From the UHGV virus genome UHGV-0139776: a stretch of 64,000 bases of DNA. One strand, written 5' to 3'. Below are positions 21,614 through 58,744 of the stretch, piece by piece; within the stretch, counting starts at the first letter, position 1; every line of letters begins with the position of its first letter. Position numbers and translations under genes: made by a program. This DNA comes from a virus. Under the pieces are notes generated by a model, which was given only the letters and a program-made list of their open reading frames with translations, was not told the origin of the DNA and did not search any database.

Positions 21614-21649
21614 GGCACTTGTGTGAATCCCTTTTCGGAAGAGATTTTA

Positions 21650-21790
21650 TTGAAAGTCACTTGTTGACTTTCTCGTGACAAGCAATTTTTTTATTTTTTT
21701 CGGGAGTAGGGGAGGAAGGTAAAATCCAAGGTGAAATCGTGGCGATTTCACCTTGAAATTTTAGATGGATTTACTTTAAAAACAGTAGGT
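21650..21790. promoter_or_regulatory. parS: parS centromere: palindrome CAAGGTGAAATCG-TGG-CGATTTCACCTTG (21727-21755) with ATTTCAC (box A) and TCGCCA (box B) motifs
   Basis: Lies immediately downstream of parB; heptamer/hexamer boxes match the P1 parS organisation from memory. Confidence 0.75.
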
Positions 21791-21817
21791 TAATAGTGAA
21801 ATTTGAATGGCGAAAGT

Positions 21818-22819
21818 TTAAGGCTTCGGCTTTTTATCGAGGCTCTTTCTAAGGATATGCCCAATCATCCTGTCGAGTTCTTCCTGTAGCTCTTTTGAAA
21901 GTCGATTAAACTCATAAGAAAATGCACGGCCTTTCACGCGCTTTCTTGCAAAGCGATCCTTGTCCTCAAATTTCCATAATTCAGTAACTACGGACTTATC
22001 TTTAGAACCTTTATCCGTGAGTAGTGAGGCTTCCTTTGTTATCAAGCGCAGGATTTTATTTTTAACTTCATCTTCGGCCATTTCTTCAATGGATAAGATG
22101 TCGTTTATTTCCGGGGATATGTTTTGAATAAGCTGATCAAACTCTAAATTCTTGTTCCCCATTTCGTCGCCAACAGCACAAAGCGTTTTGTAGTCCGAAA
22201 AGGTTAATTCCGACTGCACAGGGAAAAGGGCGACTAATTCTTCCGGAGCACTCGCTGCCTGGAGAGCACGCGTGACCTTAGCCTGAGACAGCCCTTCTTT
22301 GGCTGCAATATCCTTCTGACTCATCCCATCATTTTTCATTCGCATCAAACGCAGACCTATTTCTCGAATGCTGTGCTGCAATGCTGTCTGAACGTCTTTC
22401 GCTAAATTTTGCGCTTCCTGAACGCTGATCTCCTGGTCCGTGACTAAAACCCGCAACCCTACGTTCTCTAAGATGGCAGAAGCTCGACGCCGGGAACCAT
22501 CCAAAATTTCAATTTTCCCTGTAGCCCGTCTAACACCTATTGCAGGGTAAAATTGCTGATGCTTAATAGTGCTTCGGATACTTTTTAATGATTTTGGCGT
22601 AAGAGATGCCTGGTCACGCCCGTTGTTATGCTGATCAACAAAGGTATCGCTTTCTACCTGGTTCGGAGGTATTACCTCTTCAATAAATGTGGCCTGGCGA
22701 CCAGTTGATAACTTGAATACCTGCTCGACTCGATCGCCAGAGGCTGAAGAACTATCAAATCCGCTTAATATTGAAGGATTAAGGGTTCGCCCAATTGTTG
22801 GTCTGTTTTTCTTTGACAT
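21818..22819 (-). CDS. parB: ParB partition protein, 333 aa
   Basis: Follows parA; ParB-like HTH region (GLSQAKVTRALQAA); size matches P1 ParB. Confidence 0.85.
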   Translation of the reverse strand: MSKKNRPTIGRTLNPSILSGFDSSSASGDRVEQVFKLSTGRQATFIEEVIPPNQVESDTFVDQHNNGRDQASLTPKSLKSIRSTIKHQQFYPAIGVRRATGKIEILDGSRRRASAILENVGLRVLVTDQEISVQEAQNLAKDVQTALQHSIREIGLRLMRMKNDGMSQKDIAAKEGLSQAKVTRALQAASAPEELVALFPVQSELTFSDYKTLCAVGDEMGNKNLEFDQLIQNISPEINDILSIEEMAEDEVKNKILRLITKEASLLTDKGSKDKSVVTELWKFEDKDRFARKRVKGRAFSYEFNRLSKELQEELDRMIGHILRKSLDKKPKP

Positions 22820-22835
22820 GGGGGTTTCTTACTCC

Positions 22836-24032
22836 TCAGTTAGATCTGATAAATTCAATACGGTCAAAAACTGCTTTAGCAAAATCTTCCGCGGCAATTC
22901 GCGCGTTCTTCAATGCATCAGCACTACCAACATACGTTGCCGGGTTAGCTGAAATAACAGTGTCAAAAGACTCGCCGCAACGTTCAAAACCGTCAAGGCG
23001 AGGGAGGACGACATCGAGCATATCCCCACCGAACACTTCTTTAGCCAGGCTATGGCAATACTTATGATCTGCCTTGTTACTCAACTTGGACATAAAACCA
23101 ATGTTAGTCGCAAGCTGGCACTCGCAGCCTTCATCCGAAATGAGTTTTACCAACTCAGGAAGGCGGGCAACGTATTTAAGCGATGAGTGGAAATCGACAG
23201 TTGCTGGCGGCAGAGGTGTAAACAGTATATTGGCCGAGGCCAAAGCATTTTTCAGGAAGGCGTCAAGGTGAGGACCACTATCAACGAGGATAAAGTCATA
23301 ATCGCTCTTCAGCTTATCAATCACATTTTCTTTCAGGACAGCATGGATGTTCTGACCCGGTAGATGCTCATTGCACAGCTCTCTCCAATCGGATGCAATA
23401 AAGGCATCGTCAATCGACGCAGGCATAACGTCAACCCCAGGTACAACAGAAGGAACAATAAACTCCTCTAACAGCTCTTCACGGCTTACATTCTGCAACA
23501 TAGCCTGTGCAGATGTTGCGTTTACGATACCAATAGAGTGTTTATGGCTTAAAAACATCGTTGCTGAAGATTGCGGATCAAGGTCAATAACCAGAATCCT
23601 TAAATCTTCCATCAGAAGATGAGGGTGGGCACGCATTGCATGCGCCAGAGAAACCGTCGATACAGTTTTTGACACACCGCCTTTAAGATTGGAGATGAAA
23701 ATCACATACGCTTCGCTGTAGCGATCCCGGTATTTTGGCACTCCGCGATGTTCATATATGTCAATGATGTTCTGAATTGACATCGCATATTTCATTGAAG
23801 AGCCAGCAGGGCGTTTATCGAAAACATAACCCTTTTCTTCCATTTCACTTACGGCATAGTCAACGTTCGCTCGAGTCAGTAGAGGCAATTTTGCCAGTGC
23901 CGCTTTCGCATAGACCTGGTAAAACTCGTTCGCGTGTAGCTCATCCTTTTGCAACTGTACTTGTTCAGTCAGAACATTGAGCATTCTGTTTGCTCTTTGA
24001 GCAACCTTGTGAAGCTGGCTGGAATCACTCAT
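22836..24032 (-). CDS. parA: ParA partition ATPase (type Ia, with N-terminal HTH extension), 398 aa
   Basis: Deviant Walker A motif NLKGGVSKT; N-terminus MSDSSQLHKVAQRANRMLNVLTEQ matches my memory of P1 ParA. Confidence 0.9.
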   Translation of the reverse strand: MSDSSQLHKVAQRANRMLNVLTEQVQLQKDELHANEFYQVYAKAALAKLPLLTRANVDYAVSEMEEKGYVFDKRPAGSSMKYAMSIQNIIDIYEHRGVPKYRDRYSEAYVIFISNLKGGVSKTVSTVSLAHAMRAHPHLLMEDLRILVIDLDPQSSATMFLSHKHSIGIVNATSAQAMLQNVSREELLEEFIVPSVVPGVDVMPASIDDAFIASDWRELCNEHLPGQNIHAVLKENVIDKLKSDYDFILVDSGPHLDAFLKNALASANILFTPLPPATVDFHSSLKYVARLPELVKLISDEGCECQLATNIGFMSKLSNKADHKYCHSLAKEVFGGDMLDVVLPRLDGFERCGESFDTVISANPATYVGSADALKNARIAAEDFAKAVFDRIEFIRSN

Positions 24033-24299
24033 CGAAAGTCATCCTTTATGCTGTATTTTTGAATTTAATTAAAAATGCTGCATAAAATAATAATGTATGC
24101 GTAGATGCTTGTATATAGCATTCTCTGCATGTTTACTCCTTTGCCAAGTGTGTCACAACATGCTTTGGCATCCTCCACGCATAAAGGACGCGGATTTCTT
24201 CTATGTTCAGGTTGTAGCCTGAATCATTTTGGTGATTTCCTGCTTCAACGAGCAGCCAGGCTTCACTCTCTATCAACTGGTGAGAACGGCTTGCCCGGC

Positions 24300-24590
24300 A
24301 GCTTCGATGTGTGCTGGAGGGAGAATAAAAGTCTAAGATGTGCGATAGAGGGAAGTCGCATTGAATTATGTGCTGTGGAGGGATCGCTGGTATCAAATAT
24401 GTGTGCTGGAGGGAAAGACAGAGAATTACATGTGCACTGGAGGGAAAAACGGATGGACAGATGTGTGCTGGAGGGAAAGTCTGAGCAAACTGCGGGGCGT
24501 CCCCCTCCAGCGCACATCAAAAACGGGAAATTGGACAAGCCTTCCCGGCAGCACACATTTTTTTGAATGCAGCTGCCCTCCAGCACACAC
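24300..24590. repeat. incA iteron array: nine GATGTGTGCTGGAGGG-type repeats, the last three inverted
   Basis: Copies at 24306, 24337, 24367, 24398, 24429, 24460 and inverted at 24502, 24546, 24574; downstream of repA. Confidence 0.85.
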
Positions 24591-25777: not shown

Positions 25778-26179
25778 TTAGTTGTCGTTTTCCGTACCTA
25801 CTTCTTCGATCAACAAACTACTTGTATAGATGCGTAACGTATCACCTTTGTAGAGGAATTGATAACCAACACCTCCTATGGCAGGGAGGTCGGGGAACAT
25901 TTCAGAAGCAACCCCAGAGCAAATCACGGCGATACAGTCATCCCGCTGTACATCCTTACGCTCTGTACTCAAAGTTTGCTCTTCCCCGATTGCCTTTGTC
26001 ATCTCCTCATCTTCGTACGCAACAGGGATATATTCAATCGCATCAGGCGTTTTGATACCCAGTTCTTCAGCAATCTCGAACGCCTGTTTAAATTGATCTG
26101 ACCCAGGATATCCAACGGTAATACTCTCAATTTCGAACAAAGAAGTAGCGTTGTTTATTTCTTGTTTAACCGCAAACAT
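25778..26179 (-). CDS. hypothetical acidic protein, 133 aa
   Basis: ORF only. Confidence 0.4.
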   Translation of the reverse strand: MFAVKQEINNATSLFEIESITVGYPGSDQFKQAFEIAEELGIKTPDAIEYIPVAYEDEEMTKAIGEEQTLSTERKDVQRDDCIAVICSGVASEMFPDLPAIGGVGYQFLYKGDTLRIYTSSLLIEEVGTENDN

Positions 26180-26249: not shown

Positions 26250-26609
26250 TTAAATCTGCTCGCTGAGCTTTTGCTTCAGCAGATAACCTTCCAGCGGCCA
26301 GATTTTCTCAATGGCGTTCTTACGGGCCACCTTACGGCCAATCTCCGCGTCGAAATTTTTAGGGCTGGCACAGGCGCTTTCCCCGGTAACAATTAATCCA
26401 TTGCACAGCACCAAGACACAGATGGTCAGGCTACGCGTAGAGGGATGAACAGACAGCACCTCACGAACGCCTTCATGCGCAGCGCGAATGCCGTCAAAAG
26501 CTGTGAAATAATGCTCTTCGGCAATCACACTCTCGATGTGATCAGGAGTCAGGCGTGGTGCTGTTTTGCCTTTGGCCAGAATCTCTTTTTCAATTTCCAT
26601 ATCGGACAT
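26250..26609 (-). CDS. hypothetical protein, 119 aa
   Basis: ORF only. Confidence 0.4.
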   Translation of the reverse strand: MSDMEIEKEILAKGKTAPRLTPDHIESVIAEEHYFTAFDGIRAAHEGVREVLSVHPSTRSLTICVLVLCNGLIVTGESACASPKNFDAEIGRKVARKNAIEKIWPLEGYLLKQKLSEQI

Positions 26610-26620
26610 AGTTTTTCCTT

Positions 26621-26872
26621 TTAGTTACCGCTGATAGCGCGGTTGTAATCATTAACGTTGCGATTCTTCCTGTTAATCCCCATCAGCATCGTTTCTGTAT
26701 CGAGGATATACGCTGGCAGATCATCAAAATATTCACTGCTAAACTCTGGCATTCTGCACATAAATGCACTTTTGGGGGCAGGGTGGTTAACCTTTGTCGG
26801 CGTCGGCGTTAAATTCGCTGATCGACTCCCGGAGCAACCGCTGAGTGTCAGCAGGAATGCGCTGGCGAACAT
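26621..26872 (-). CDS. outer-membrane lipoprotein, o-spanin (Rz1-like) candidate
   Basis: Lipobox LTLSGC; proline-containing mature part; its start lies inside the 3-prime end of the upstream coiled-coil gene in another frame. Confidence 0.5.
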   Translation of the reverse strand: MFASAFLLTLSGCSGSRSANLTPTPTKVNHPAPKSAFMCRMPEFSSEYFDDLPAYILDTETMLMGINRKNRNVNDYNRAISGN

Positions 26873-27209
26873 TACCCGCCGCAACCAGTTGTTTCTGAAC
26901 TTCAGCTTTTCGTTCCATTTGCCTGTCAGCATATTTGGCTTGTTCTGATTCATTTTTCACTTCCTGGCTGTGAAAATGTTGATCTGCTTTGTTCATCGTC
27001 TCAATGGTCTGGTTAAGATCCATTATTGACTTATCACGTTCCTTAACAGCCTGATCAAGACTGCCAATTTTATCCAAGGCTTGCTTTAGCTGATGACGTT
27101 CCCATGCAAACCCGGCACCAACAAGTGCGCAAATCAGAACAAGAACACCAGTAGCAGCAAGTTTCTCCTTCAAAGACAAAGCTGTTTTTAACGTAGAAAA
27201 GAATGACAT
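26787..27209 (-). CDS. N-terminal-TM coiled-coil protein, i-spanin (Rz-like) candidate
   Basis: Start ATG at 27209 with an AGGAGG RBS; TMD VLVLICALVGAGFAW; C-terminal VAAGNVRQRI resembles lambda Rz VAAGRRRLHI. Confidence 0.5.
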   Translation of the reverse strand: MSFFSTLKTALSLKEKLAATGVLVLICALVGAGFAWERHQLKQALDKIGSLDQAVKERDKSIMDLNQTIETMNKADQHFHSQEVKNESEQAKYADRQMERKAEVQKQLVAAGNVRQRIPADTQRLLRESISEFNADADKG

Positions 27210-27248
27210 GTCTTCCTCCTGAAGAAAAATTATCAATGAAGTCCTTTG

Positions 27249-28037
27249 TTACTGTGCCGCTTTGTTTAATTCATCAAGAACAGAATCAGGAACCAAAGCA
27301 GCAACTGCGCTGGCTGTGCTGGCCTTATTTGCTGATGCTTCCGCAAGCGCAGTACCGATAGCATGGTTATAAGCAGTTATGGCTACATTGGCGCTTTCAT
27401 TCGCTCGTTCATACTGCTGTTGTAACGCAGTTGTGGGCGCTGTTGTCTGGTTGAAAACAACCCCAAACTGTTCAGTTGCTACTTTCAGAGATTCAATTTG
27501 CTCTTCTGTTAGTGCTGGTGGGGGAGTGGCAGTGCCGCCGCCTGAACCAGAGCCTGGCGAGCTTCCTGAGCCAGTGTTAAGGGTCTGGTTAATCTCCCCC
27601 ATTGCAGCGACTAAACTTGATGTATTAAGCGCGTTAACAGCGTCCTCAAGCGATTTAGTAATATTCACATCACCAATGGCAATAGAGATCGGCAGTTCTG
27701 AAACTTCTCGCTCATTAGCACGGCAGTAAACATCCCAACCAATATCGAGTTGAAGCAGCATTGACAGATCTGCATAACCAGCCAACAGGTCCGCGTGCTT
27801 AGTTGCCAGTTCTCCAATGTTCGTTAAGCCGGTTGTGGTTGTTCTGATCGTTGAAACATAGCTGGTAATAGTGTCGGGATAGACAATTGTATCCAGAATT
27901 AATCCGGTCAATTCTTCTGCAAGCAGTTTTGCTGTGTTAGCACTGTTTCGTGCCGATGTTATGGCACCAGGTGTTTTCATCCCACCGGCGGCGGCCAATT
28001 TTTTATATGCGGATAACTGGTAGTCTTTTTCCAGCAT
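27249..28037 (-). CDS. hypothetical protein, 262 aa, translationally coupled to the PAAR-like gene
   Basis: Start ATG at 28037 with a GGAG RBS overlapping the upstream stop; Gly/Ser-rich linker. Confidence 0.4.
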   Translation of the reverse strand: MLEKDYQLSAYKKLAAAGGMKTPGAITSARNSANTAKLLAEELTGLILDTIVYPDTITSYVSTIRTTTTGLTNIGELATKHADLLAGYADLSMLLQLDIGWDVYCRANEREVSELPISIAIGDVNITKSLEDAVNALNTSSLVAAMGEINQTLNTGSGSSPGSGSGGGTATPPPALTEEQIESLKVATEQFGVVFNQTTAPTTALQQQYERANESANVAITAYNHAIGTALAEASANKASTASAVAALVPDSVLDELNKAAQ

Positions 28038-28045
28038 GATATCTC

Positions 28046-28330
28046 CTAACTTACCTGAACCAGGCCGTCTCCGGACGCTACGGTAGATCCGCATGAAACA
28101 GGGTCACCAACGCATACGATCCCTTTACCATTGACGGTAAACCATGCCCTGGTTGATATAGCTTGCCCACCGTGCGTACTGTTTCCATCGGTATGCTGTG
28201 CATATTGCTTACCATCAACTAACACTTCGACTCCGTTGACTTTAAGTAGTGGTTCACTCTCTACAGGAGCCCTGGATGGGAATCCTCCGTGCCCCGAACA
28301 AATGCTGTCTTTTGTTGCAATACTTGCCAC
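28046..28330 (-). CDS. PAAR-like repeat protein (spike-tip candidate), 94 aa
   Basis: Repeated SGHGG / VNG / VGDPVSCG elements resembling PAAR motifs. Confidence 0.45.
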   Translation of the reverse strand: MASIATKDSICSGHGGFPSRAPVESEPLLKVNGVEVLVDGKQYAQHTDGNSTHGGQAISTRAWFTVNGKGIVCVGDPVSCGSTVASGDGLVQVS

Positions 28331-51176: not shown

Positions 51177-51925
51177 GCAAGATTGACTATCAGGCACTGC
51201 GTGAGGCGGCAGAGCGTGCAATTCCGGCAATGGAACGCCTGTTAATGTTGCCAGTTGATGATGATCTGATAAGCGAACAGGAACTTAAAGATTACGGCGT
51301 GGATATTGATGCGCTCAACGCCTTCAAATTTCTGACCGGACCAGAAACCGTGCTGGCGCTGCTGGATGAACGGGAAAGAAACCAGCAATACATAAAACGC
51401 CGCGATCAGGAGAACGAGGATATTGCGCTAACGGTAGGGAAGCTGAGAGTTGAGCTTGAGGAAGTAAAACAACACGCTGAAGAATTATCCGAAACCAAGG
51501 CTGTTCGTAACCAATGGCGGCCAGATATTTGCCCAATAACCGGACGTGCATTTTTCATGTGGATTGAGCATCCAACATTGGGAAATGTGCCGACATATGG
51601 TGGCCCATTAGATAGTTACACCATTCCAACAAAGGACGGTGACGGTGAGTTTTCATGTGAGCGTTACGATCATGATTTTGGCGGTTGGGTAGAAAGCGAA
51701 TGTCTTGGGGTATATCTGATTGATGATAGAGAACAATGCAGGGTCTACGAACTGGAGGAACGCGTTAAGGAACTGGATGCTCGGGAAATATCGCTCCCGG
51801 AACGTAGCAGCATGCTTCATCGAACAGATTTTCACGATGATTACCAAACGGTAATGGCATACAAAGTTTCTGAAGTCATCGCTGCAATCCGCGCCGCAGG
51901 CATTCGCATCAAAGGAGGTGAGTAA
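51173..51925 (+). CDS. hypothetical protein, paralogue B (N-terminus SKIDYQALREAAERA)
   Basis: GTG start with GGAGG RBS; tandem paralogue of the previous gene. Confidence 0.45.
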   Translation: MSKIDYQALREAAERAIPAMERLLMLPVDDDLISEQELKDYGVDIDALNAFKFLTGPETVLALLDERERNQQYIKRRDQENEDIALTVGKLRVELEEVKQHAEELSETKAVRNQWRPDICPITGRAFFMWIEHPTLGNVPTYGGPLDSYTIPTKDGDGEFSCERYDHDFGGWVESECLGVYLIDDREQCRVYELEERVKELDAREISLPERSSMLHRTDFHDDYQTVMAYKVSEVIAAIRAAGIRIKGGE

Positions 51926-52460
51926 TGCGTGTGGCATGTATCGGCTTGTTACCGTACCCGACTCGTTTTTGGGCTTCTGCGCTAATTGCAAAGCCGTATG
52001 TCCTGATGGCTGACAACATCATCCCGGCACCAAAGCGCCGCCATACCGGTATTGCAGCGGCACGACGAGCAGCAAAGAGACGCAGGAGAGCAAAGCGATG
52101 AAAAACCGTAAGGCAAAACGACTTTTTTTACAGCGACCTGTGCGTGTGGTGGAGCTGGTTATTAGCAACCATAAGATAGCGGTACTCCATCCATTTGGTC
52201 AGGTGGCTTTTGCCGCAAAGCGTAAGCCTACTGCGTCACAGAACAGGCGGAAGAAAGGGTACGCTGTAAGATGAAAAACCGTAAAGCAAAGATTCTGTTA
52301 GTTCGTAGAAACGCTCCTGGCGTCTGGCAGTGGGTGAGACTCAGCAACCGACGGATGGGGTTGATGAAATATTACGGGATGATGGATTGTGGTTTTTGCA
52401 AAAAGCCCAGCGCGGCGCAAAACCGCTGGAAAAACCACTTGCGCACTAAAGGAGAGTGAT

Positions 52461-52976
52461 ATGGCGTTAACACACCGCGAACTCTGTCAGATTGCGTATA
52501 AGTTCCTTAAGCGCAACGGGTTCAAGGTTTGTTTTCATGACCGCTTTATAGCTGTAACCAGTACCGGAGAACAGCCAGATGCTATGGGATTCAGAAATTC
52601 AGCATCATGCCTGATAGAGGCGAAGTGTTCTCGTGCTGACTTGTTGGCAGATAGGAAAAAGCGTTTTCGTAAAAATCCATCTCTTGGAATGGGCGACTGG
52701 CGATTCTTTATTAGTGAGCCGGGAATTATTTCAGTTGAGGATTTACCACCTGGCTGGGGATTACTTCACGTTGTTAACGGAAGAGTACGGAAAGTACATG
52801 GGTGGCCCAAGGGTAATTGCTGTTGGGGTAATCCTGACGATAAGCCATTTACTGGAAATAAGCAGGTTGAATGCGATTACATGTTATCTGCATTAAGGCG
52901 CATGGAGTTGAGAGGGCACCTTAATGAAATATATGACGGTGTAATTGTTAATAAGAAAGAAGGAAACGCGGCATGA
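52461..52976 (+). CDS. PD-(D/E)xK-like nuclease-fold protein, about 171 aa
   Basis: ATG at 52461 with AAAGGAG RBS; DAMGF...LIEAKCS resembles a D...E-x-K motif. Confidence 0.35.
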   Translation: MALTHRELCQIAYKFLKRNGFKVCFHDRFIAVTSTGEQPDAMGFRNSASCLIEAKCSRADLLADRKKRFRKNPSLGMGDWRFFISEPGIISVEDLPPGWGLLHVVNGRVRKVHGWPKGNCCWGNPDDKPFTGNKQVECDYMLSALRRMELRGHLNEIYDGVIVNKKEGNAA

Positions 52977-53776
52977 TCACTATTACCAAAGAGCGACTGC
53001 TGACAATCAAGCAGTGGCGCGAAACATACGGACCTGGTAGCAACGTTGTACTGCCAGCAGAAGAAGCGGAAGAACTGGCACGAATTGCTCTGGCATCGCT
53101 GGAAGCAGAACCGGTTGCAGTAAACGACGACATGGCTTACGCATTCCATCACGCATTGTCAGATTCATCGCTAGGCGCTGATGAAGTAGAGGAAATTAAG
53201 GCCGGTTTGCGTGCTGCCTTTGCCAACGTCACTATCCAACCAGAGCCGGTAGTGCCGGATGAAATCGAGTTAGCAATTGAAAACCTCAAGCAGAAATTAG
53301 TGGAATGCAATCGCTATAACTACTGCGCAGATGCAGTGAAGAACGTTGAGGATGCCTGCCACGCTGCCATGCTTCAGGGTAGCCAACCTGTAAGCCAAAC
53401 TTACAAGTTGCCAGTTAATACACCTTGCCAAGATGCGCCAGCCCATATCTGGCTGCAAACAGCTGGAGTATGGCCAGAAGATGGCGAGTTAAGCGAATTA
53501 ACGTGGTGCAGCCACAATCAGCACCATGATGACACGCTATATGTTCGAGCTGACCTTGTGAATGGCAACTATCCGGTAACTCCGGATGGTTGGATAAGCT
53601 GTAGTGAGCGAATGCCCGCTCAAGATGATTGGATTTTAATTTATTCAAAGCACGGCGAGTATATGGCAGGACAGGTACAAGGGGAATACGTGGAGTTGAG
53701 CGACGGCACTTTATCGTGGTTAGGGAACGCCTTGTACTGGATGCCGCTACCAGAACCGCCGCAGGAGGCGAAATGA
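52973..53776 (+). CDS. hypothetical protein, 267 aa
   Basis: ORF with overlapping start and stop. Confidence 0.4.
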   Translation: MITITKERLLTIKQWRETYGPGSNVVLPAEEAEELARIALASLEAEPVAVNDDMAYAFHHALSDSSLGADEVEEIKAGLRAAFANVTIQPEPVVPDEIELAIENLKQKLVECNRYNYCADAVKNVEDACHAAMLQGSQPVSQTYKLPVNTPCQDAPAHIWLQTAGVWPEDGELSELTWCSHNQHHDDTLYVRADLVNGNYPVTPDGWISCSERMPAQDDWILIYSKHGEYMAGQVQGEYVELSDGTLSWLGNALYWMPLPEPPQEAK

Positions 53777-54033
53777 TGGATGTAAAAGAGAAGGTTTTGC
53801 AGGTGATGCGTTCCCGGGCTGCCCTGCAAGATAAAGCTCTCGGCGGGGAATATCCATTCAGGATGGCAACCTGGAATCTGCGGTTGGCAATGGAGAAGGA
53901 ATTTCCTGATGAAGAATGGCGTTCGGCAGATTTGCGCAAAATTCTTATGGAGATGGCTAAAGATGGAACAGTATCCAAAGATACCCATGCCAGCCGGATT
54001 GGTCAGGCGGTATGGAGACTGGAGGTGAGATAA
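53773..54033 (+). CDS. small hypothetical protein, about 86 aa
   Basis: ATGA overlap with the upstream stop; CAGGAGG RBS. Confidence 0.4.
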   Translation: MMDVKEKVLQVMRSRAALQDKALGGEYPFRMATWNLRLAMEKEFPDEEWRSADLRKILMEMAKDGTVSKDTHASRIGQAVWRLEVR

Positions 54034-54118
54034 TGAGCTGGCCTGAAGCATTCGCAACGGTAGGAATTGTGATGGCGGCAGCACTGGGTTTGTATTCAAT
54101 TTGTCGCTGGTGGTAACG

Positions 54119-54352
54119 ATGGGAAAATTAACTTTTGTAGTCGAATTTGAGGATGGTAAAGAGCCACCTGTTAGCGCCAATCTTGATGTTGCTGGTGGCA
54201 GGCTTGTTTCGGTTCTATTTGGTGACTACCGAGATGATTTCTTCCAACCAGAAGAAGTTGATGTGGTGCGAGAGGCATTAAACGAGTTAAGTGTTGATAA
54301 CGATGATGCTCATGCGGAAATCATCCAAAAAATGGAGCTGCTAACTCACTAA
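54119..54352 (+). CDS. small acidic protein, about 77 aa
   Basis: ATG at 54119 (track shows a TTG at 54101). Confidence 0.35.
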   Translation: MGKLTFVVEFEDGKEPPVSANLDVAGGRLVSVLFGDYRDDFFQPEEVDVVREALNELSVDNDDAHAEIIQKMELLTH

Positions 54353-54530
54353 ATTATCAATTATGGTGCTATCACCTACGACACCGAGAGAAAATTTATA
54401 ATGTCAAAAGTAAATGTTTTGATTTTTTCAGCAATTGTTGGCTTTGGTTTTACTGCCGGAGTGCAGATTTATATTACGTGGGAAAAAATCATCAACTACG
54501 CATGGAGTTGTTTTATTAAGTGAGGTAAGT

Positions 54531-54824
54531 ATGTGGAGAGGTAATAGTCATGGCAAAAGCCAGATGATACTTACCGGATATCAGCTCGACCACAAAACCA
54601 ATAAATCACGTTCAGTATATTTGCTTCGCCACAATAGCCGCGTAAGGAATACCGTACTGGAGCAAAATCTGACCGTTGAAATGGATAATTACGGGGGCTT
54701 CAAGCCAACAATATCGCTTGATGATTTTCCTCGTGGTTTAAGCGAAAGAGAAGCAATGCTGAAATTAGCAGAATGGCTACAAAGATTAAGCATTGCTATT
54801 GAAGATAACTGGTCTGAACCTTAA
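54531..54824 (+). CDS. small hypothetical protein, about 97 aa
   Basis: ATG at 54531 with GAGG RBS. Confidence 0.4.
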   Translation: MWRGNSHGKSQMILTGYQLDHKTNKSRSVYLLRHNSRVRNTVLEQNLTVEMDNYGGFKPTISLDDFPRGLSEREAMLKLAEWLQRLSIAIEDNWSEP

Positions 54825-54830
54825 ATTTAT

Positions 54831-55205
54831 ATGATGACACTAAAACATTTTCTTGACCGCCCATTATGGGCGGCAGCCGCAGGCTATGACTTTAATTATA
54901 TGGATTGCATGTCTTATACTGCCAATGCATACGACCATTCGTTCAGCCTGCTGTTTAATTCTTTAAGAATATTGCCGGAAACAGAAGTTGGAGAGCTTCA
55001 TTTATGGCTATTGGGCTTTATCGCGGCTGTCGTTGGTATTGCTGTATGGCCTTTTATTTTCTGGCTGGTGGCTGTTGTAGTGTGGTTTAAGTGCAAGACA
55101 TACCGGAAAAAGTATTTCTTAGGTGATGGAATGACTGATATTGCCAAAATGAACATTGAAAAATGGATTAAGGAATGTGAAAAGAAATGGCGCAAAAAGA
55201 AATGA
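54831..55205 (+). CDS. membrane protein (two TM segments), 124 aa
   Basis: Hydrophobic segment LWLLGFIAAVVGIAVWPFIFWLVAVVVWF. Confidence 0.4.
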   Translation: MMTLKHFLDRPLWAAAAGYDFNYMDCMSYTANAYDHSFSLLFNSLRILPETEVGELHLWLLGFIAAVVGIAVWPFIFWLVAVVVWFKCKTYRKKYFLGDGMTDIAKMNIEKWIKECEKKWRKKK

Positions 55206-55837
55206 CCAGAATCACTGAAGAGCGTATATCAGAGATTATTTCCCGTATCGAAATGTATGGTCACGGTGCTGGATATACGGCAGATGAAGTATTGGAAATA
55301 GCCCAGCAGATGCTGGCCTTGAGACAAAAAGAGCAACATGAAAGTAATACGTGTAGATTGAATTTTGAGCAGTGGCTGGAACAGCAACGCGGAAAAATCG
55401 ATGTGGACTGTGGTTGTGTGTCCACTGAAACATTCATGCACTGGCTGCGGGTAGCTTACGAGGCTGGCAACTATCCGGATATTCCGGATAGTTCGGTGCC
55501 AGCGCCAGGAAAGGGCGTCACCGGTGAACGTATCCGCATTAAGCCGCATGTTTATCGCGAACTGGTTAACCGTCTCCACGATACAGCGATCAAGTGTGCT
55601 GGCACCCAGCAATTACGAGAAAGAATTAGCCGAGTTTTGGGCGACGTTATTACGCCAGATCATCATAAACAAGCCGAGAAAAGTGGCTTGGAAAGGTGTC
55701 ACCTTGAGGCGGCATTAAACATTAAGCCGGGGCATACGCTTGGCATTATTGATGCACTATTGGTTCATAAGATGGCCAGGGCTTTATTGCCGCTGGTGGC
55801 TGAAAAGCATGAGGCGGACCATGCCAACGAAAGCTGA
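55187..55837 (+). CDS. hypothetical protein, 216 aa
   Basis: ORF; the start could alternatively be 55202. Confidence 0.4.
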   Translation: MAQKEMTRITEERISEIISRIEMYGHGAGYTADEVLEIAQQMLALRQKEQHESNTCRLNFEQWLEQQRGKIDVDCGCVSTETFMHWLRVAYEAGNYPDIPDSSVPAPGKGVTGERIRIKPHVYRELVNRLHDTAIKCAGTQQLRERISRVLGDVITPDHHKQAEKSGLERCHLEAALNIKPGHTLGIIDALLVHKMARALLPLVAEKHEADHANES

Positions 55838-56105
55838 GTTACAGGCGCGCATAGAGATTCTTGAAAAAGAGAATGCGAGTCTAAAAGGAATGCTGGCGCG
55901 GGCGGAAAGGGAATTATCAGGAAAATTATTGCCAGAAGAGCTGCCACCAGCAGATATACCTGATCGAGTGTCCTGGTGGATGAAGTATTTCCGTGCACCG
56001 TGGGAGGCGTTTTGGTGCTACGACCATCGCAGATGGTGTGATGAGCTTGATAGCAGTTTCCCCTATTTTGCGGAAGGGAACTCTTGCCCTGAATGTAGGA
56101 GTTAA
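55821..56105 (+). CDS. coiled-coil plus C-terminal zinc-ribbon protein, paralogue 1 (about 94 aa)
   Basis: ATG at 55821 with GAGG RBS; C-terminus WEAFWCYDHRRWCDELDSSFPYFAEGNSCPEC. Confidence 0.45.
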   Translation: MPTKAELQARIEILEKENASLKGMLARAERELSGKLLPEELPPADIPDRVSWWMKYFRAPWEAFWCYDHRRWCDELDSSFPYFAEGNSCPECRS

Positions 56106-56413
56106 TGATGACCGGCGAGCTTTATTTTAAAATGGCACGGGAGCGGCGTGTGCATCTGGATCGGATATTTCATCTCCAGAAGAGAGTAGAAGAACTGGAA
56201 CGTCGTCTGAACTGTTATCCTGTTGATATGGTGTCTGCAATACCGCCGATTCCAATAGAAATGCAGATCCGCCTATGGATGGAAGAATATGGAATGCCGT
56301 GGGAGATATTTTTCTGCTTCGACCATAAACAGTGGGTAGATGAGCTGGATAATAGTTTCCCATATTTCACAGAGAACACATGCCCAGTATGCAGGAAGAG
56401 AAAGGAATCATGA
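56105..56413 (+). CDS. coiled-coil plus C-terminal zinc-ribbon protein, paralogue 2 (102 aa)
   Basis: C-terminus WEIFFCFDHKQWVDELDNSFPYFTENTCPVC; tandem paralogue. Confidence 0.45.
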   Translation: MMTGELYFKMARERRVHLDRIFHLQKRVEELERRLNCYPVDMVSAIPPIPIEMQIRLWMEEYGMPWEIFFCFDHKQWVDELDNSFPYFTENTCPVCRKRKES

Positions 56414-56667
56414 TTCTCCCGCGTCCGCGCCCACCGAAAATGGAGAAAAAAAGGATGATTAATGGCTATCAGCCGCATACCCCAGAAATACAAGGGAGCG
56501 AGGGGCTTAAACCACCACTAGCACCACGGAACGCATCATTACGGCGAGAGTTAATATTAACTTTGTCGCCCGTTCTGGCTGCCCGCCAGGATTGGGTAAG
56601 TAATGATGACCTGGCAGAAAAAATCACATCGCTGGTGGATAAAATTCTGCATAAAGCTGATCTCTGA
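56410..56667 (+). CDS. small basic protein, about 85 aa
   Basis: ATGA overlap start with AAAGGA RBS. Confidence 0.35.
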   Translation: MILPRPRPPKMEKKRMINGYQPHTPEIQGSEGLKPPLAPRNASLRRELILTLSPVLAARQDWVSNDDLAEKITSLVDKILHKADL

Positions 56668-56706
56668 TCACCATGCTAAAATCCCCTCAATTCACAGAGG
56701 GGATTT

Positions 56707-56979
56707 TTGTCTATGTTGTATAGAGTTTTATGGAAAAGCGTTATTGTCGGCGCGATACTGGCTATATCTGGGTGTGCAATGGTGCAATACAACGACGGTG
56801 AAAAGGTAAGCATACAGTCAGATGGTTGGTATGGCCTTGATAGCTTGCAAAAAACCGCAGATAAAGCCTGTCAGCAATATGGGAAGTCTAAAGCCGTATA
56901 TCAGCATAGCGCGAACGCTAATCCCCATCTCGCTCCCGGTTCGGGTGTTCAGAATACCATCTGGAAATGTGAGCTTTAA
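56707..56979 (+). CDS. lipoprotein, 90 aa (lipobox AISGC)
   Basis: Signal peptide plus lipobox. Confidence 0.5.
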
Positions 56980-56981
56980 AC

Positions 56982-57221
56982 ATGAGCAACTGCAATATTG
57001 CAGCTAAAAGCCAGGAAGAGCGAGACAAGGTGAACGTAGACCTTGCCGCCAGCGGCGTTGCTTACAAAGAACGACTGAATATACCGGTGATTGCAGAGCA
57101 GGTGGCCCGTGAGCAACCGGAAAACCTGCGCGCCTATTTCATGGAACGGCTACGGCACTACAGGCAGTTAAGCCTCCAGTTGCCAAAAGGGAGCGATCCG
57201 GCATATCAGAAAACAGAATAG
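56982..57221 (+). CDS. hot: DNA polymerase III theta-subunit (HolE) homologue, 79 aa
   Basis: [43 protein letters not shown] closely parallels E. coli HolE. Confidence 0.8.
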
Positions 57222-57232
57222 TTGTTAGGCTA

Positions 57233-57595
57233 TTACGCAATGCCCGCGCCATTCTTAGCGGGTTTTAAGCCATATTCACCGTTGTAGAAATTACTCATGT
57301 TCCATTCATTGGGAAGCTCTTTTCTGTCCAATGTATAGTGGCGCACGATATAACGATCTTCATCTTCTTCGATGGACAGGCGGACATAGCCAATGTGAAT
57401 TACCGATACGGGCGGCGTCCGTATTGCATAGATGTCGCGGAGATATACCGGTAGCTCGACAAATGCATCAGGTGTATCTGTGATGCTCATTTTTTCACAG
57501 TATTCATATAACGCATCGTTGATATCGTTAAGAGATTCATGATCGTATATTTCCAGGTAATTACCGCGATCGCGATGGTACTCGATTTTAGCCAT
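57233..57595 (-). CDS. hypothetical protein, 120 aa (second gene of the LexA-box-proximal minus-strand unit)
   Basis: ORF only. Confidence 0.4.
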   Translation of the reverse strand: MAKIEYHRDRGNYLEIYDHESLNDINDALYEYCEKMSITDTPDAFVELPVYLRDIYAIRTPPVSVIHIGYVRLSIEEDEDRYIVRHYTLDRKELPNEWNMSNFYNGEYGLKPAKNGAGIA

Positions 57596-58180
57596 TCAAA
57601 ATCCCCTGTTATCGTTTTGCATTTCTCTAATCCGGTTCAGAACTACTTCGTGCTGGGCTTGGATAGCGGCTTTTTCGTTTTCAAGCCGGGCAATAGACAT
57701 CTCTAATTCTTTGCTGTACCAGGCGAGTTGGGCCAGGTTCATCTGGTTGTGGTCGAGAGTTGGAGACACTTCGACGCGATCCCTTTCTTCTTGCTTTAAT
57801 GAGAAGAGATTCATCTCATCCCTTGAGGAAAATTCAGCAACAATTTCTTGTTGATGATCCGGTCGCTGCGGCATCCTCGCCAGTATAAATGGCGGTTCTT
57901 TTGAAAACATAAATGTCGGTTCAGAACGTGTTTTCACCCATCTAGCCTGCTGTCTTTCGGCAAGTTCACAGGCTTCATCATAGTTATTTGCCAAACCAAG
58001 CACGGATGGACGGTCCCACGCGCCACCATTCAGACAATAAACAACAATTTTCCCGTCAGGTTGTGTAACCCCATAGGGATGGTCCCACCAGGCGTCCAGC
58101 TGAGCTTTAGAGCGTTTCTCGTTAGGAGTGCAGTCAAAATTTTTGGGCAATACAGGATCGAGAGGAATGCGATTAGGCAT
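57596..58180 (-). CDS. hypothetical protein, 194 aa, divergent from humD
   Basis: ORF starting about 135 bp from the LexA box. Confidence 0.4.
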   Translation of the reverse strand: MPNRIPLDPVLPKNFDCTPNEKRSKAQLDAWWDHPYGVTQPDGKIVVYCLNGGAWDRPSVLGLANNYDEACELAERQQARWVKTRSEPTFMFSKEPPFILARMPQRPDHQQEIVAEFSSRDEMNLFSLKQEERDRVEVSPTLDHNQMNLAQLAWYSKELEMSIARLENEKAAIQAQHEVVLNRIREMQNDNRGF

Positions 58181-58315
58181 AGCTAATTCCTTATTAACTG
58201 ATTGGCAACGAGGTTACGCTGATCCGTTGGTGATGAATAGTAGCAAAGAGCACAAAATCATCAGCGGTGGTTGATGTACGTAACGCGTTTGCACCAAAGG
58301 TGTCTCTTTAATGTA

Positions 58316-58335
58316 TACTGTATAAATGAACAGTA
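58316..58335. promoter_or_regulatory. LexA box (TACTGTATAAATGAACAGTA) in the humD promoter
   Basis: CTGT-N8-ACAG palindrome 20 bp upstream of the humD start. Confidence 0.8.
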
Positions 58336-58354
58336 TTGTTGAGGTAAAAACGCT

Positions 58355-58744
58355 ATGGGCTTCCCTTCTCCTGCGGCGGATTATGTTGAAAGCCGAATTT
58401 CTCTTGATCAGCAACTAATCAGGCATCCATCAGCAACCTACTTCATGCGGGCAGCTGATAGCCATCACCGTGAGGGAATATTGCAGGGTGCTTTGCTGGT
58501 GGTTGATTCCTCGCTTACTCCGGTTGATGGTTCTCTGCTTGTGTGCGCTATGGAGGGTGAATATCGCATAAAGAGATACCGAAAGTATCCGCGCCAGCAC
58601 CTGGAGGATTTAAGCACCGGGAAGAAAGAGGCGTTACCAGTAGATGACGATGGTTACACGGGTAGTAATGCTGTTTTTGGTGTGATCACTCATGTCATCA
58701 ATGATGCCCGAAGTGGGGAATTTGATGATTGTCCGGTGATTTAA
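58355..58744 (+). CDS. humD: UmuD-prime-like protein, 129 aa
   Basis: UmuD C-terminal domain similarity; LexA-boxed promoter. Confidence 0.75.
   Translation: MGFPSPAADYVESRISLDQQLIRHPSATYFMRAADSHHREGILQGALLVVDSSLTPVDGSLLVCAMEGEYRIKRYRKYPRQHLEDLSTGKKEALPVDDDGYTGSNAVFGVITHVINDARSGEFDDCPVI

Follow-up and report, generated by a model that had tools for sequence, protein, structure and literature searches.

Sequence analysis of ppfA and mlp, a predicted overlapped spanin gene pair behind the baseplate genes of a P1-like phage-plasmid

Two overlapping minus-strand genes in a 64,000-nucleotide stretch of viral DNA (UHGV-0139776; the whole stretch is referred to as the window) very probably encode the two-component spanin of a P1-like phage-plasmid, and we put the probability of this reading at about 0.88. 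It is carried by the gene architecture, the topology signals of both products, the selection seen on two reading frames, and the homology of the lipoprotein, Mlp, to LysC of phage P2. The finding adds little to what has been published on P1. [quoted passage not shown] The questions of start codon, promoter, and timing raised here bear on the last step of lysis in P1, a phage with unusually scattered lysis genes.

Identity of the Locus and Previous Assignments

A 3-kb stretch around the gene pair matches the DNA of P1, P7, and other P1-like phage-plasmids with 95–98% identity, and the annotated features beneath the P1 match are repA, oriR, upfA, mlp, ppfA, upfB, and upfC. On the BLAST map, the window spans the P1 genome from the tail-fibre gene S to pacB, with a few segments replaced or divergent. 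Judged from these matches, the window is a P1-like phage-plasmid, and the gene pair (Table 1) is ppfA (gp064) and mlp (gp063) of P1. The lengths, the overlap, the lipobox, and the neighbours upfC, upfB, oriR, and repA all correspond to the P1 locus, and the predicted protein PpfA is 94–98% identical to proteins that carry this name. The pair differs from that of P1 by a few substitutions (for example, residue 32 of Mlp is Ala in the window and Val in P1).

The spanin assignment of ppfA and mlp is not new; it has been published and is found in curated spanin tables. In Kongari et al. 2018 (PMC6139136, supplementary table), the overlapped i-spanin of P1 is gp064 and its overlapped o-spanin is gp063; each has a family to itself, named 'P1', and gp063 carries the remark 'Too long signal sequence'. 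Bednarek et al. 2022 (PMC9025707), citing Summer et al. 2007, reported that the P1 spanin genes were recognised from predicted features, and described ppfA and mlp as partly overlapping genes in an operon unlinked to the remaining lysis genes. The Introduction of that paper has the two roles swapped, with ppfA as the o-spanin gene and mlp as the i-spanin gene, whereas the sequence features say the reverse. Several GenBank records label these genes Rz and Rz1 or 'Rz-like spanin'. Two small additions may be made here, namely the position of the pair directly behind the baseplate genes upfC and upfB, and a possible start of mlp at codon 24.

Table 1. Features of the ppfA/mlp locus and of the genes directly upstream (window coordinates)
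Feature	Position	Strand	Basis
upfC, PAAR-like spike tip	28046–28330	−	PAAR Pfam and PHROG matches; P1 annotation; cryo-EM (PMC12810830)
upfB, baseplate tripod	27249–28094	−	P1 annotation; cryo-EM (PMC12810830)
Shine-Dalgarno sequence AGGAGG of ppfA, 5 nt 5' of the ATG	27215–27220	−	Sequence; same site marked in the table of Kongari et al. 2018
ppfA, predicted i-spanin; type II inner-membrane protein with helical periplasmic domain	26787–27209	−	ORF of 140 aa; phrog_89; gp064 in Kongari et al. 2018
Predicted single N-terminal transmembrane helix LAATGVLVLICALVGAGFA, PpfA codons 17–35	27105–27161	−	Kyte-Doolittle hydropathy; helical in AlphaFold2
mlp, predicted o-spanin; outer-membrane lipoprotein precursor	26621–26953	−	110 aa from the annotated ATG; LysC, phrog_30284, and phrog_456 matches; gp063 in Kongari et al. 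2018
Overlap coding for both PpfA and Mlp, 167 nt with the annotated mlp ATG; 98-nt core from 26884	26787–26953	−	Identity and substitution pattern
Possible alternative mlp start TTG, codon 24; 87-aa precursor with 16 residues before the Cys	26882–26884	−	Relatives; LysC alignment; substitutions
Lipobox L-S-G-C; Cys40 (26834–26836) is the predicted lipid-modified first mature residue	26834–26845	−	Sequence

PpfA, the Predicted i-Spanin

The first gene encodes a 140-residue protein with a hydrophobic segment near its N terminus, just as the earlier note had described it. In 19-residue Kyte-Doolittle windows, the hydropathy of PpfA peaks at 2.35 over residues 17–35, and the remainder is hydrophilic, with a maximum of −0.03. 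PpfA accordingly has the form of a small type II i-spanin with one N-terminal transmembrane helix. Where a coiled coil had been proposed for the rest of the protein, the AlphaFold2 model has a long helical domain after the transmembrane segment. The model was calculated from a ten-sequence alignment and is of moderate confidence (mean pLDDT 67.5); it consists of a helix at residues 13–110, a break at residues 111–119 (AGNVRQRIP), and a second helix at residues 120–137. A mainly alpha-helical periplasmic domain of two helices and a linker, such as i-spanins possess, is thus predicted with moderate support.

Mlp, the Predicted o-Spanin, and Its Start Codon

The lipobox LTLSGC to which the earlier note had pointed is present in the second gene, and residue +2 after its Cys is Ser, so that Mlp has no inner-membrane retention signal. 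Mlp in this respect resembles the small o-spanins, which have a lipobox Cys and no Asp at +2. In relatives the lipobox reads LSAC, LNGC, or LSSC, and for gp063 a LipoP cleavage site at position 39 was given by Kongari et al. 2018 (PMC6139136). Mature Mlp comprises 71 residues, with one Cys besides the lipid-modified one. Its description as a proline-containing protein stands with a reservation, as prolines are present but their number is modest (6 of 71 residues), and lambda Rz1 is far more Pro-rich (10 of 41).

Translation from the annotated ATG at 26953 gives Mlp a signal of 39 residues, which is unusually long. This start is doubtful, and Mlp may really begin at the TTG of codon 24. P1 has TTG at this position, like the window, whereas L005 and L006, two diverged relatives, have ATG; in the alignment with P2 LysC, the codon falls on Met1. 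The 23 mlp codons upstream of the TTG have only 30% protein identity, and their substitutions track the ppfA frame only. The 16 residues before the Cys in the short form make a canonical signal, and when a PROSITE-type lipoprotein rule was applied to both forms, the short form passed and the long form failed. Against the short form, the upstream ATG and a Shine-Dalgarno-like sequence are conserved across all lineages.

Public gene calls shorten mlp to a 46-residue product lacking the signal peptide and the lipobox (L002, 2505–2645; L005, 4449–4589). One such shortened call nonetheless carries the label 'outer membrane lipoprotein Rz1'.

Overlap and Selection on Both Reading Frames

As had been noted from the raw sequence, the lipoprotein gene starts inside the 3' end of the first gene and in another frame; its register is +1 relative to ppfA, the two genes share 167 nt, and mlp runs 166 nt past the end of ppfA. 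Spanin genes are adjacent, being embedded, overlapped, or separated, and ppfA and mlp are of the overlapped kind.

The nucleotide identity to L005 and L006 is 0.86–0.88 in the core overlap, 0.59 in the part that codes for PpfA only, and 0.71–0.79 in the part that codes for Mlp only. In each single-coding part the substitutions lie mostly at third positions (in the mlp-only part, 18 of 34 and 30 of 47 changes), and in the core overlap they are rare and evenly spread, with no third-position bias. This is the substitution pattern expected for dual coding, and both frames are under selection in the relatives. In P1-like elements of Cronobacter and Salmonella, whose PpfA is 58–63% identical to that of the window, the +1 frame runs without interruption, a lipobox (LSAC, LNGC) is again present, and mature Mlp is ~80% identical. 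The mature-domain motifs AFMC-MP, DDLP-YI, and INRKN-NVN-YN are conserved at this level of PpfA identity and also in two remoter relatives. The PpfA homologues of these two came from an exhaustive HMMER search, and the gene of each is overlapped by a lipoprotein gene that encodes these motifs.

It has to be considered whether ppfA alone is real, the mlp frame being open by accident or left over from a decaying gene. In automatic annotation mlp is usually overlooked or shortened to 46 residues, the annotated precursor has the long signal described above, and Mlp has no Pfam match. The conservation data contradict an accidental frame, however, since five lineages have kept the frame together with the lipobox and the mature-domain motifs, conservation peaks in the overlap, and the changes in the mlp-only part favour third positions. 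With the match of Mlp to LysC being significant as well, we find this alternative barely credible and treat mlp as a gene.

The exhaustive HMMER search with the PpfA profile showed the family to be narrow, the only full-length distant relatives being P0078, P0084, and P0097. The remaining matches were repeats in unrelated coiled-coil proteins. P0097 (from L012) adjoins small multi-TMD genes and a lipoprotein gene. It was considered as a bridge to a lysis cassette and rejected, as its neighbours match no lysis PHROG and its homology is marginal (2.7e-4).

Relationship to the Spanins of P2 and Lambda

From the sequence comparisons, the nearest characterised relative of the pair is best described as LysB/LysC of P2, a distant one, and not Rz/Rz1 of lambda. 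The homology is found on the lipoprotein side. Mlp matches P2 LysC with a BLASTP E value of 5e-8 and 37% identity over 68 residues (tblastn 7.7e-5), and the two proteins have the motif P-PK--(F/L)-C-MP in common. Mlp matches phrog_30284 at 2.2e-77 and phrog_456 at 4e-5, and reciprocally P2 LysC matches the Mlp PHROG at 5.4e-4. With the LysC model NF038368, Mlp scores 14.3 bits, below the equivalog cut-off of 27 bits.

The relationship of PpfA to LysB appears at the level of profiles. PpfA matches phrog_89, 'Rz-like spanin', at E = 2.6e-24 over positions 3–137 of 143, and P2 LysB matches the same family at 5.8e-61. The diverged PpfA homologues P0078 and P0084 also match the i-spanin PHROGs 89, 739, and 214, and P0084 additionally matches a tape-measure PHROG. 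The matches of PpfA to spanin PHROGs can be partly compositional, as it is a protein with a transmembrane segment and a coiled coil, and phrog_89 may include PpfA among its members, in which case the match would be circular. The match to TIGR03495 (LysB) at E = 0.0021 is sub-threshold (18.3 bits against an equivalog cut-off of 92.75). Since no similarity between PpfA and P2 LysB was detected by pairwise or profile-to-sequence comparison (BLASTP E = 19; hhalign probability 1.3%), the i-spanin link is made through profiles only.

The layout of lysB/lysC in P2 is the same overlapped one, in which the lipoprotein gene is read in the +1 frame and extends past the end of the i-spanin gene, and the products are similar in size (141 residues in P2 and 140 here for the i-spanin; 96 and 110, respectively, for the o-spanin). 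The P2 pair closes a holin-endolysin-lysA cassette, whereas ppfA and mlp are unlinked from such genes and lie behind baseplate genes.

The segment VAAGNVRQRI of PpfA had been likened in the earlier note to lambda Rz, and on that comparison the pair could belong to the lambda Rz/Rz1 family proper. The local similarity around VAAG is real (17 of 48 identities), and hhalign aligns the same stretch, but it is not significant (BLASTP E = 0.25; hhalign probability 1.7%). The Pfam models of Rz (PF03245) and Rz1 (PF06085) gave no match to PpfA or Mlp at E values up to 1. Lambda Rz and Rz1 belong to phrog_13 and phrog_3198, neither of which is matched by PpfA or Mlp, and the BLASTP match of Mlp to lambda Rz1 (E = 0.007) covers the signal peptide region only. 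The arrangement of the genes also differs, as Rz1 is wholly embedded in Rz and mlp is overlapped with ppfA. Membership in the lambda family was rejected on these negative Pfam, PHROG, BLASTP, and hhalign results, and we regard it as very improbable.

What the pair does have in common with lambda Rz/Rz1 is the predicted topology, a type II inner-membrane protein together with an outer-membrane lipoprotein, and the +1 register. Lambda Rz and Rz1 depend on intermolecular disulfides. Rz has periplasmic cysteines, whereas PpfA has none (0) and mature Mlp has the one extra Cys mentioned above; this we count against the spanin reading, as we do the failure of PpfA to show significant pairwise or profile-to-sequence similarity to either lambda Rz or P2 LysB. 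The lambda pair is located in the S-R-Rz cassette, and ppfA and mlp lie outside any such cassette.

Proposed Mode of Action

If the pair is a spanin, PpfA would be anchored in the inner membrane by its single N-terminal helix, and its mostly helical, coiled-coil-type domain of ~104 residues would reach into the periplasm. After export, Mlp would receive its lipid at the lipobox Cys and lose its signal to signal peptidase II. With Ser at +2, the mature lipoprotein would be expected to travel by the Lol pathway to the outer membrane and settle in the inner leaflet there. On the model of lambda Rz/Rz1, the C-terminal regions of PpfA and Mlp may bind to each other and form a periplasm-spanning bridge threaded through the murein. 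Lyz, a SAR endolysin controlled by a holin system (LydA/LydB) whose genes lie in another part of the genome, would remove the murein and free the complexes, and lysis would be completed as these fuse or disrupt the inner membrane and the outer one. Complex formation between PpfA and Mlp, membrane fusion, and the timing of expression are what we infer, and the phenotype expected for ppfA and mlp would likewise be that of lambda Rz/Rz1.

In CRISPRi experiments, knock-down of mlp or ppfA did not abolish plaque formation, and both genes were scored non-essential, with plating efficiencies of 0.24 and 0.19 (mlp) and of 1.3 and 1.2 (ppfA). This result fits a spanin function because, according to Bednarek et al. 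2022 (PMC9025707), spanins are not needed in laboratory cultures that are shaken.

Gene Neighbourhood and Transcription

The genes upfC and upfB are located directly upstream on the same strand, with 39 nt from the upfB stop to the ppfA start, and the order upfC-upfB-ppfA-mlp is constant in the P1-like relatives examined (L005, L006, and L008–L010). In a 2026 cryo-EM study (PMC12810830), UpfC is identified as the spike tip of the P1 baseplate and UpfB as its tripod. The earlier note had assigned the pair to a plasmid-maintenance neighbourhood. The oriR and repA are indeed found ~1 kb downstream, but the description is correct for position only, as the pair is co-oriented behind the virion genes upfC and upfB.

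On the downstream side, the window has a gene of the PF13876 family (N4 gp49/Sf6 gp66) at 26250–26609 (−), between mlp and a diverged upfA-like gene. This extra gene is absent from the reference P1 and present in the Cronobacter, Salmonella, and remoter P1-like relatives. The upfA-like gene at 25778–26179 (−) has 54% protein identity to P1 UpfA, and the flanking DNA is 96–98% identical; by sequence, it is a local replacement adjoining oriR. Further along, the partition region parA/parB (21771–24302) is either ~64% identical to P1 or has no P1 match, between flanks of 98% identity, which suggests that the window carries a partition type different from that of P1.

A motif for Lpa-type late promoters, AAGTNACTT-N4-TANNNT, was built from LPlyz together with the perfect matches present in the window; it is absent between 26 and 29 kb, the region of upfC-upfB-ppfA-mlp. 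With no Lpa motif nearby and only predicted sigma-70 promoters for ppfA in the P1 record, late expression of ppfA and mlp is an assumption. We infer that the pair may be co-transcribed with the virion genes upfC and upfB. Scans with promoter and terminator consensus sequences gave sites no commoner than chance, and Rfam gave no match between 25 and 29 kb. Perfect matches to the Lpa-type motif are found at 2520–2538 (−) and at 21644–21662 (−), the second being on the upstream side of capsid gene 23 by the P1 map.

The spanin pair could conceivably stand outside the Lpa system and be transcribed from a sigma-70-type promoter together with upfC and upfB. Outer-membrane disruption might then be timed or dosed apart from the holin-endolysin step, or the pair might have a second role in the envelope, possibly in the lysogen. 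We consider this speculation unlikely.

The same observations bear on the view that ppfA and mlp form a non-lysis envelope module, whose expression might be tied to the tail-tip genes or come from the plasmid prophage. Such a module could act in superinfection exclusion, receptor masking, or help in DNA entry, in the manner of phage lipoproteins such as T5 Llp or lambda Bor. The lack of an Lpa-type motif near the operon and the restriction of the P1 record to predicted sigma-70 promoters would suit it, as would the place behind upfC and upfB, constant in all P1-like relatives examined, and the separation of the pair from every other lysis gene. That the pair is dispensable for plaques in CRISPRi would suit it too, but the same is expected of spanins. 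In the passages of the cryo-EM study (PMC12810830) consulted, neither PpfA nor Mlp is named as a component of the virion, and this speaks against such a module. The homology of Mlp to the o-spanin LysC of P2 and the presence of i-spanin and o-spanin topologies with a +1 overlap, exactly as in known spanins, argue for a two-component spanin, and an envelope module of another kind appears quite improbable to us.

Other Lysis Genes

In tblastn searches of the window, P1 Lyz, LydA, LydB, LydC, LydD, and LydE, lambda S and R, and P2 Y and K gave no significant match, and ten ORFs of the one large non-P1 segment match no lysis PHROG. The earlier statement that neither a holin nor an endolysin is present in the window holds for every P1, lambda, and P2 query run; its scope is that of the named queries and the profile matches of the ten ORFs. 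The separation of the spanin pair from a lysis cassette, also proposed from the raw sequence, is in keeping with the failure of the queried lysis genes to match the window, and the same was stated for P1 by Bednarek et al. 2022 (PMC9025707). The gene groups lyz-lydD-lydE and lydC-lydA-lydB lie at ~15–27 kb of the P1 record, a part of the genome outside the window. Location in or beside a holin-endolysin cassette is typical for spanin genes but not obligatory, and ppfA and mlp are not so located.

The large segment mentioned above (48623–58593, 10 kb) is a variable region unmatched in the P1 record used. Its genes include a PAPS-reductase-like one and several whose function is unknown and which also occur in other P1-like and lambdoid phages.
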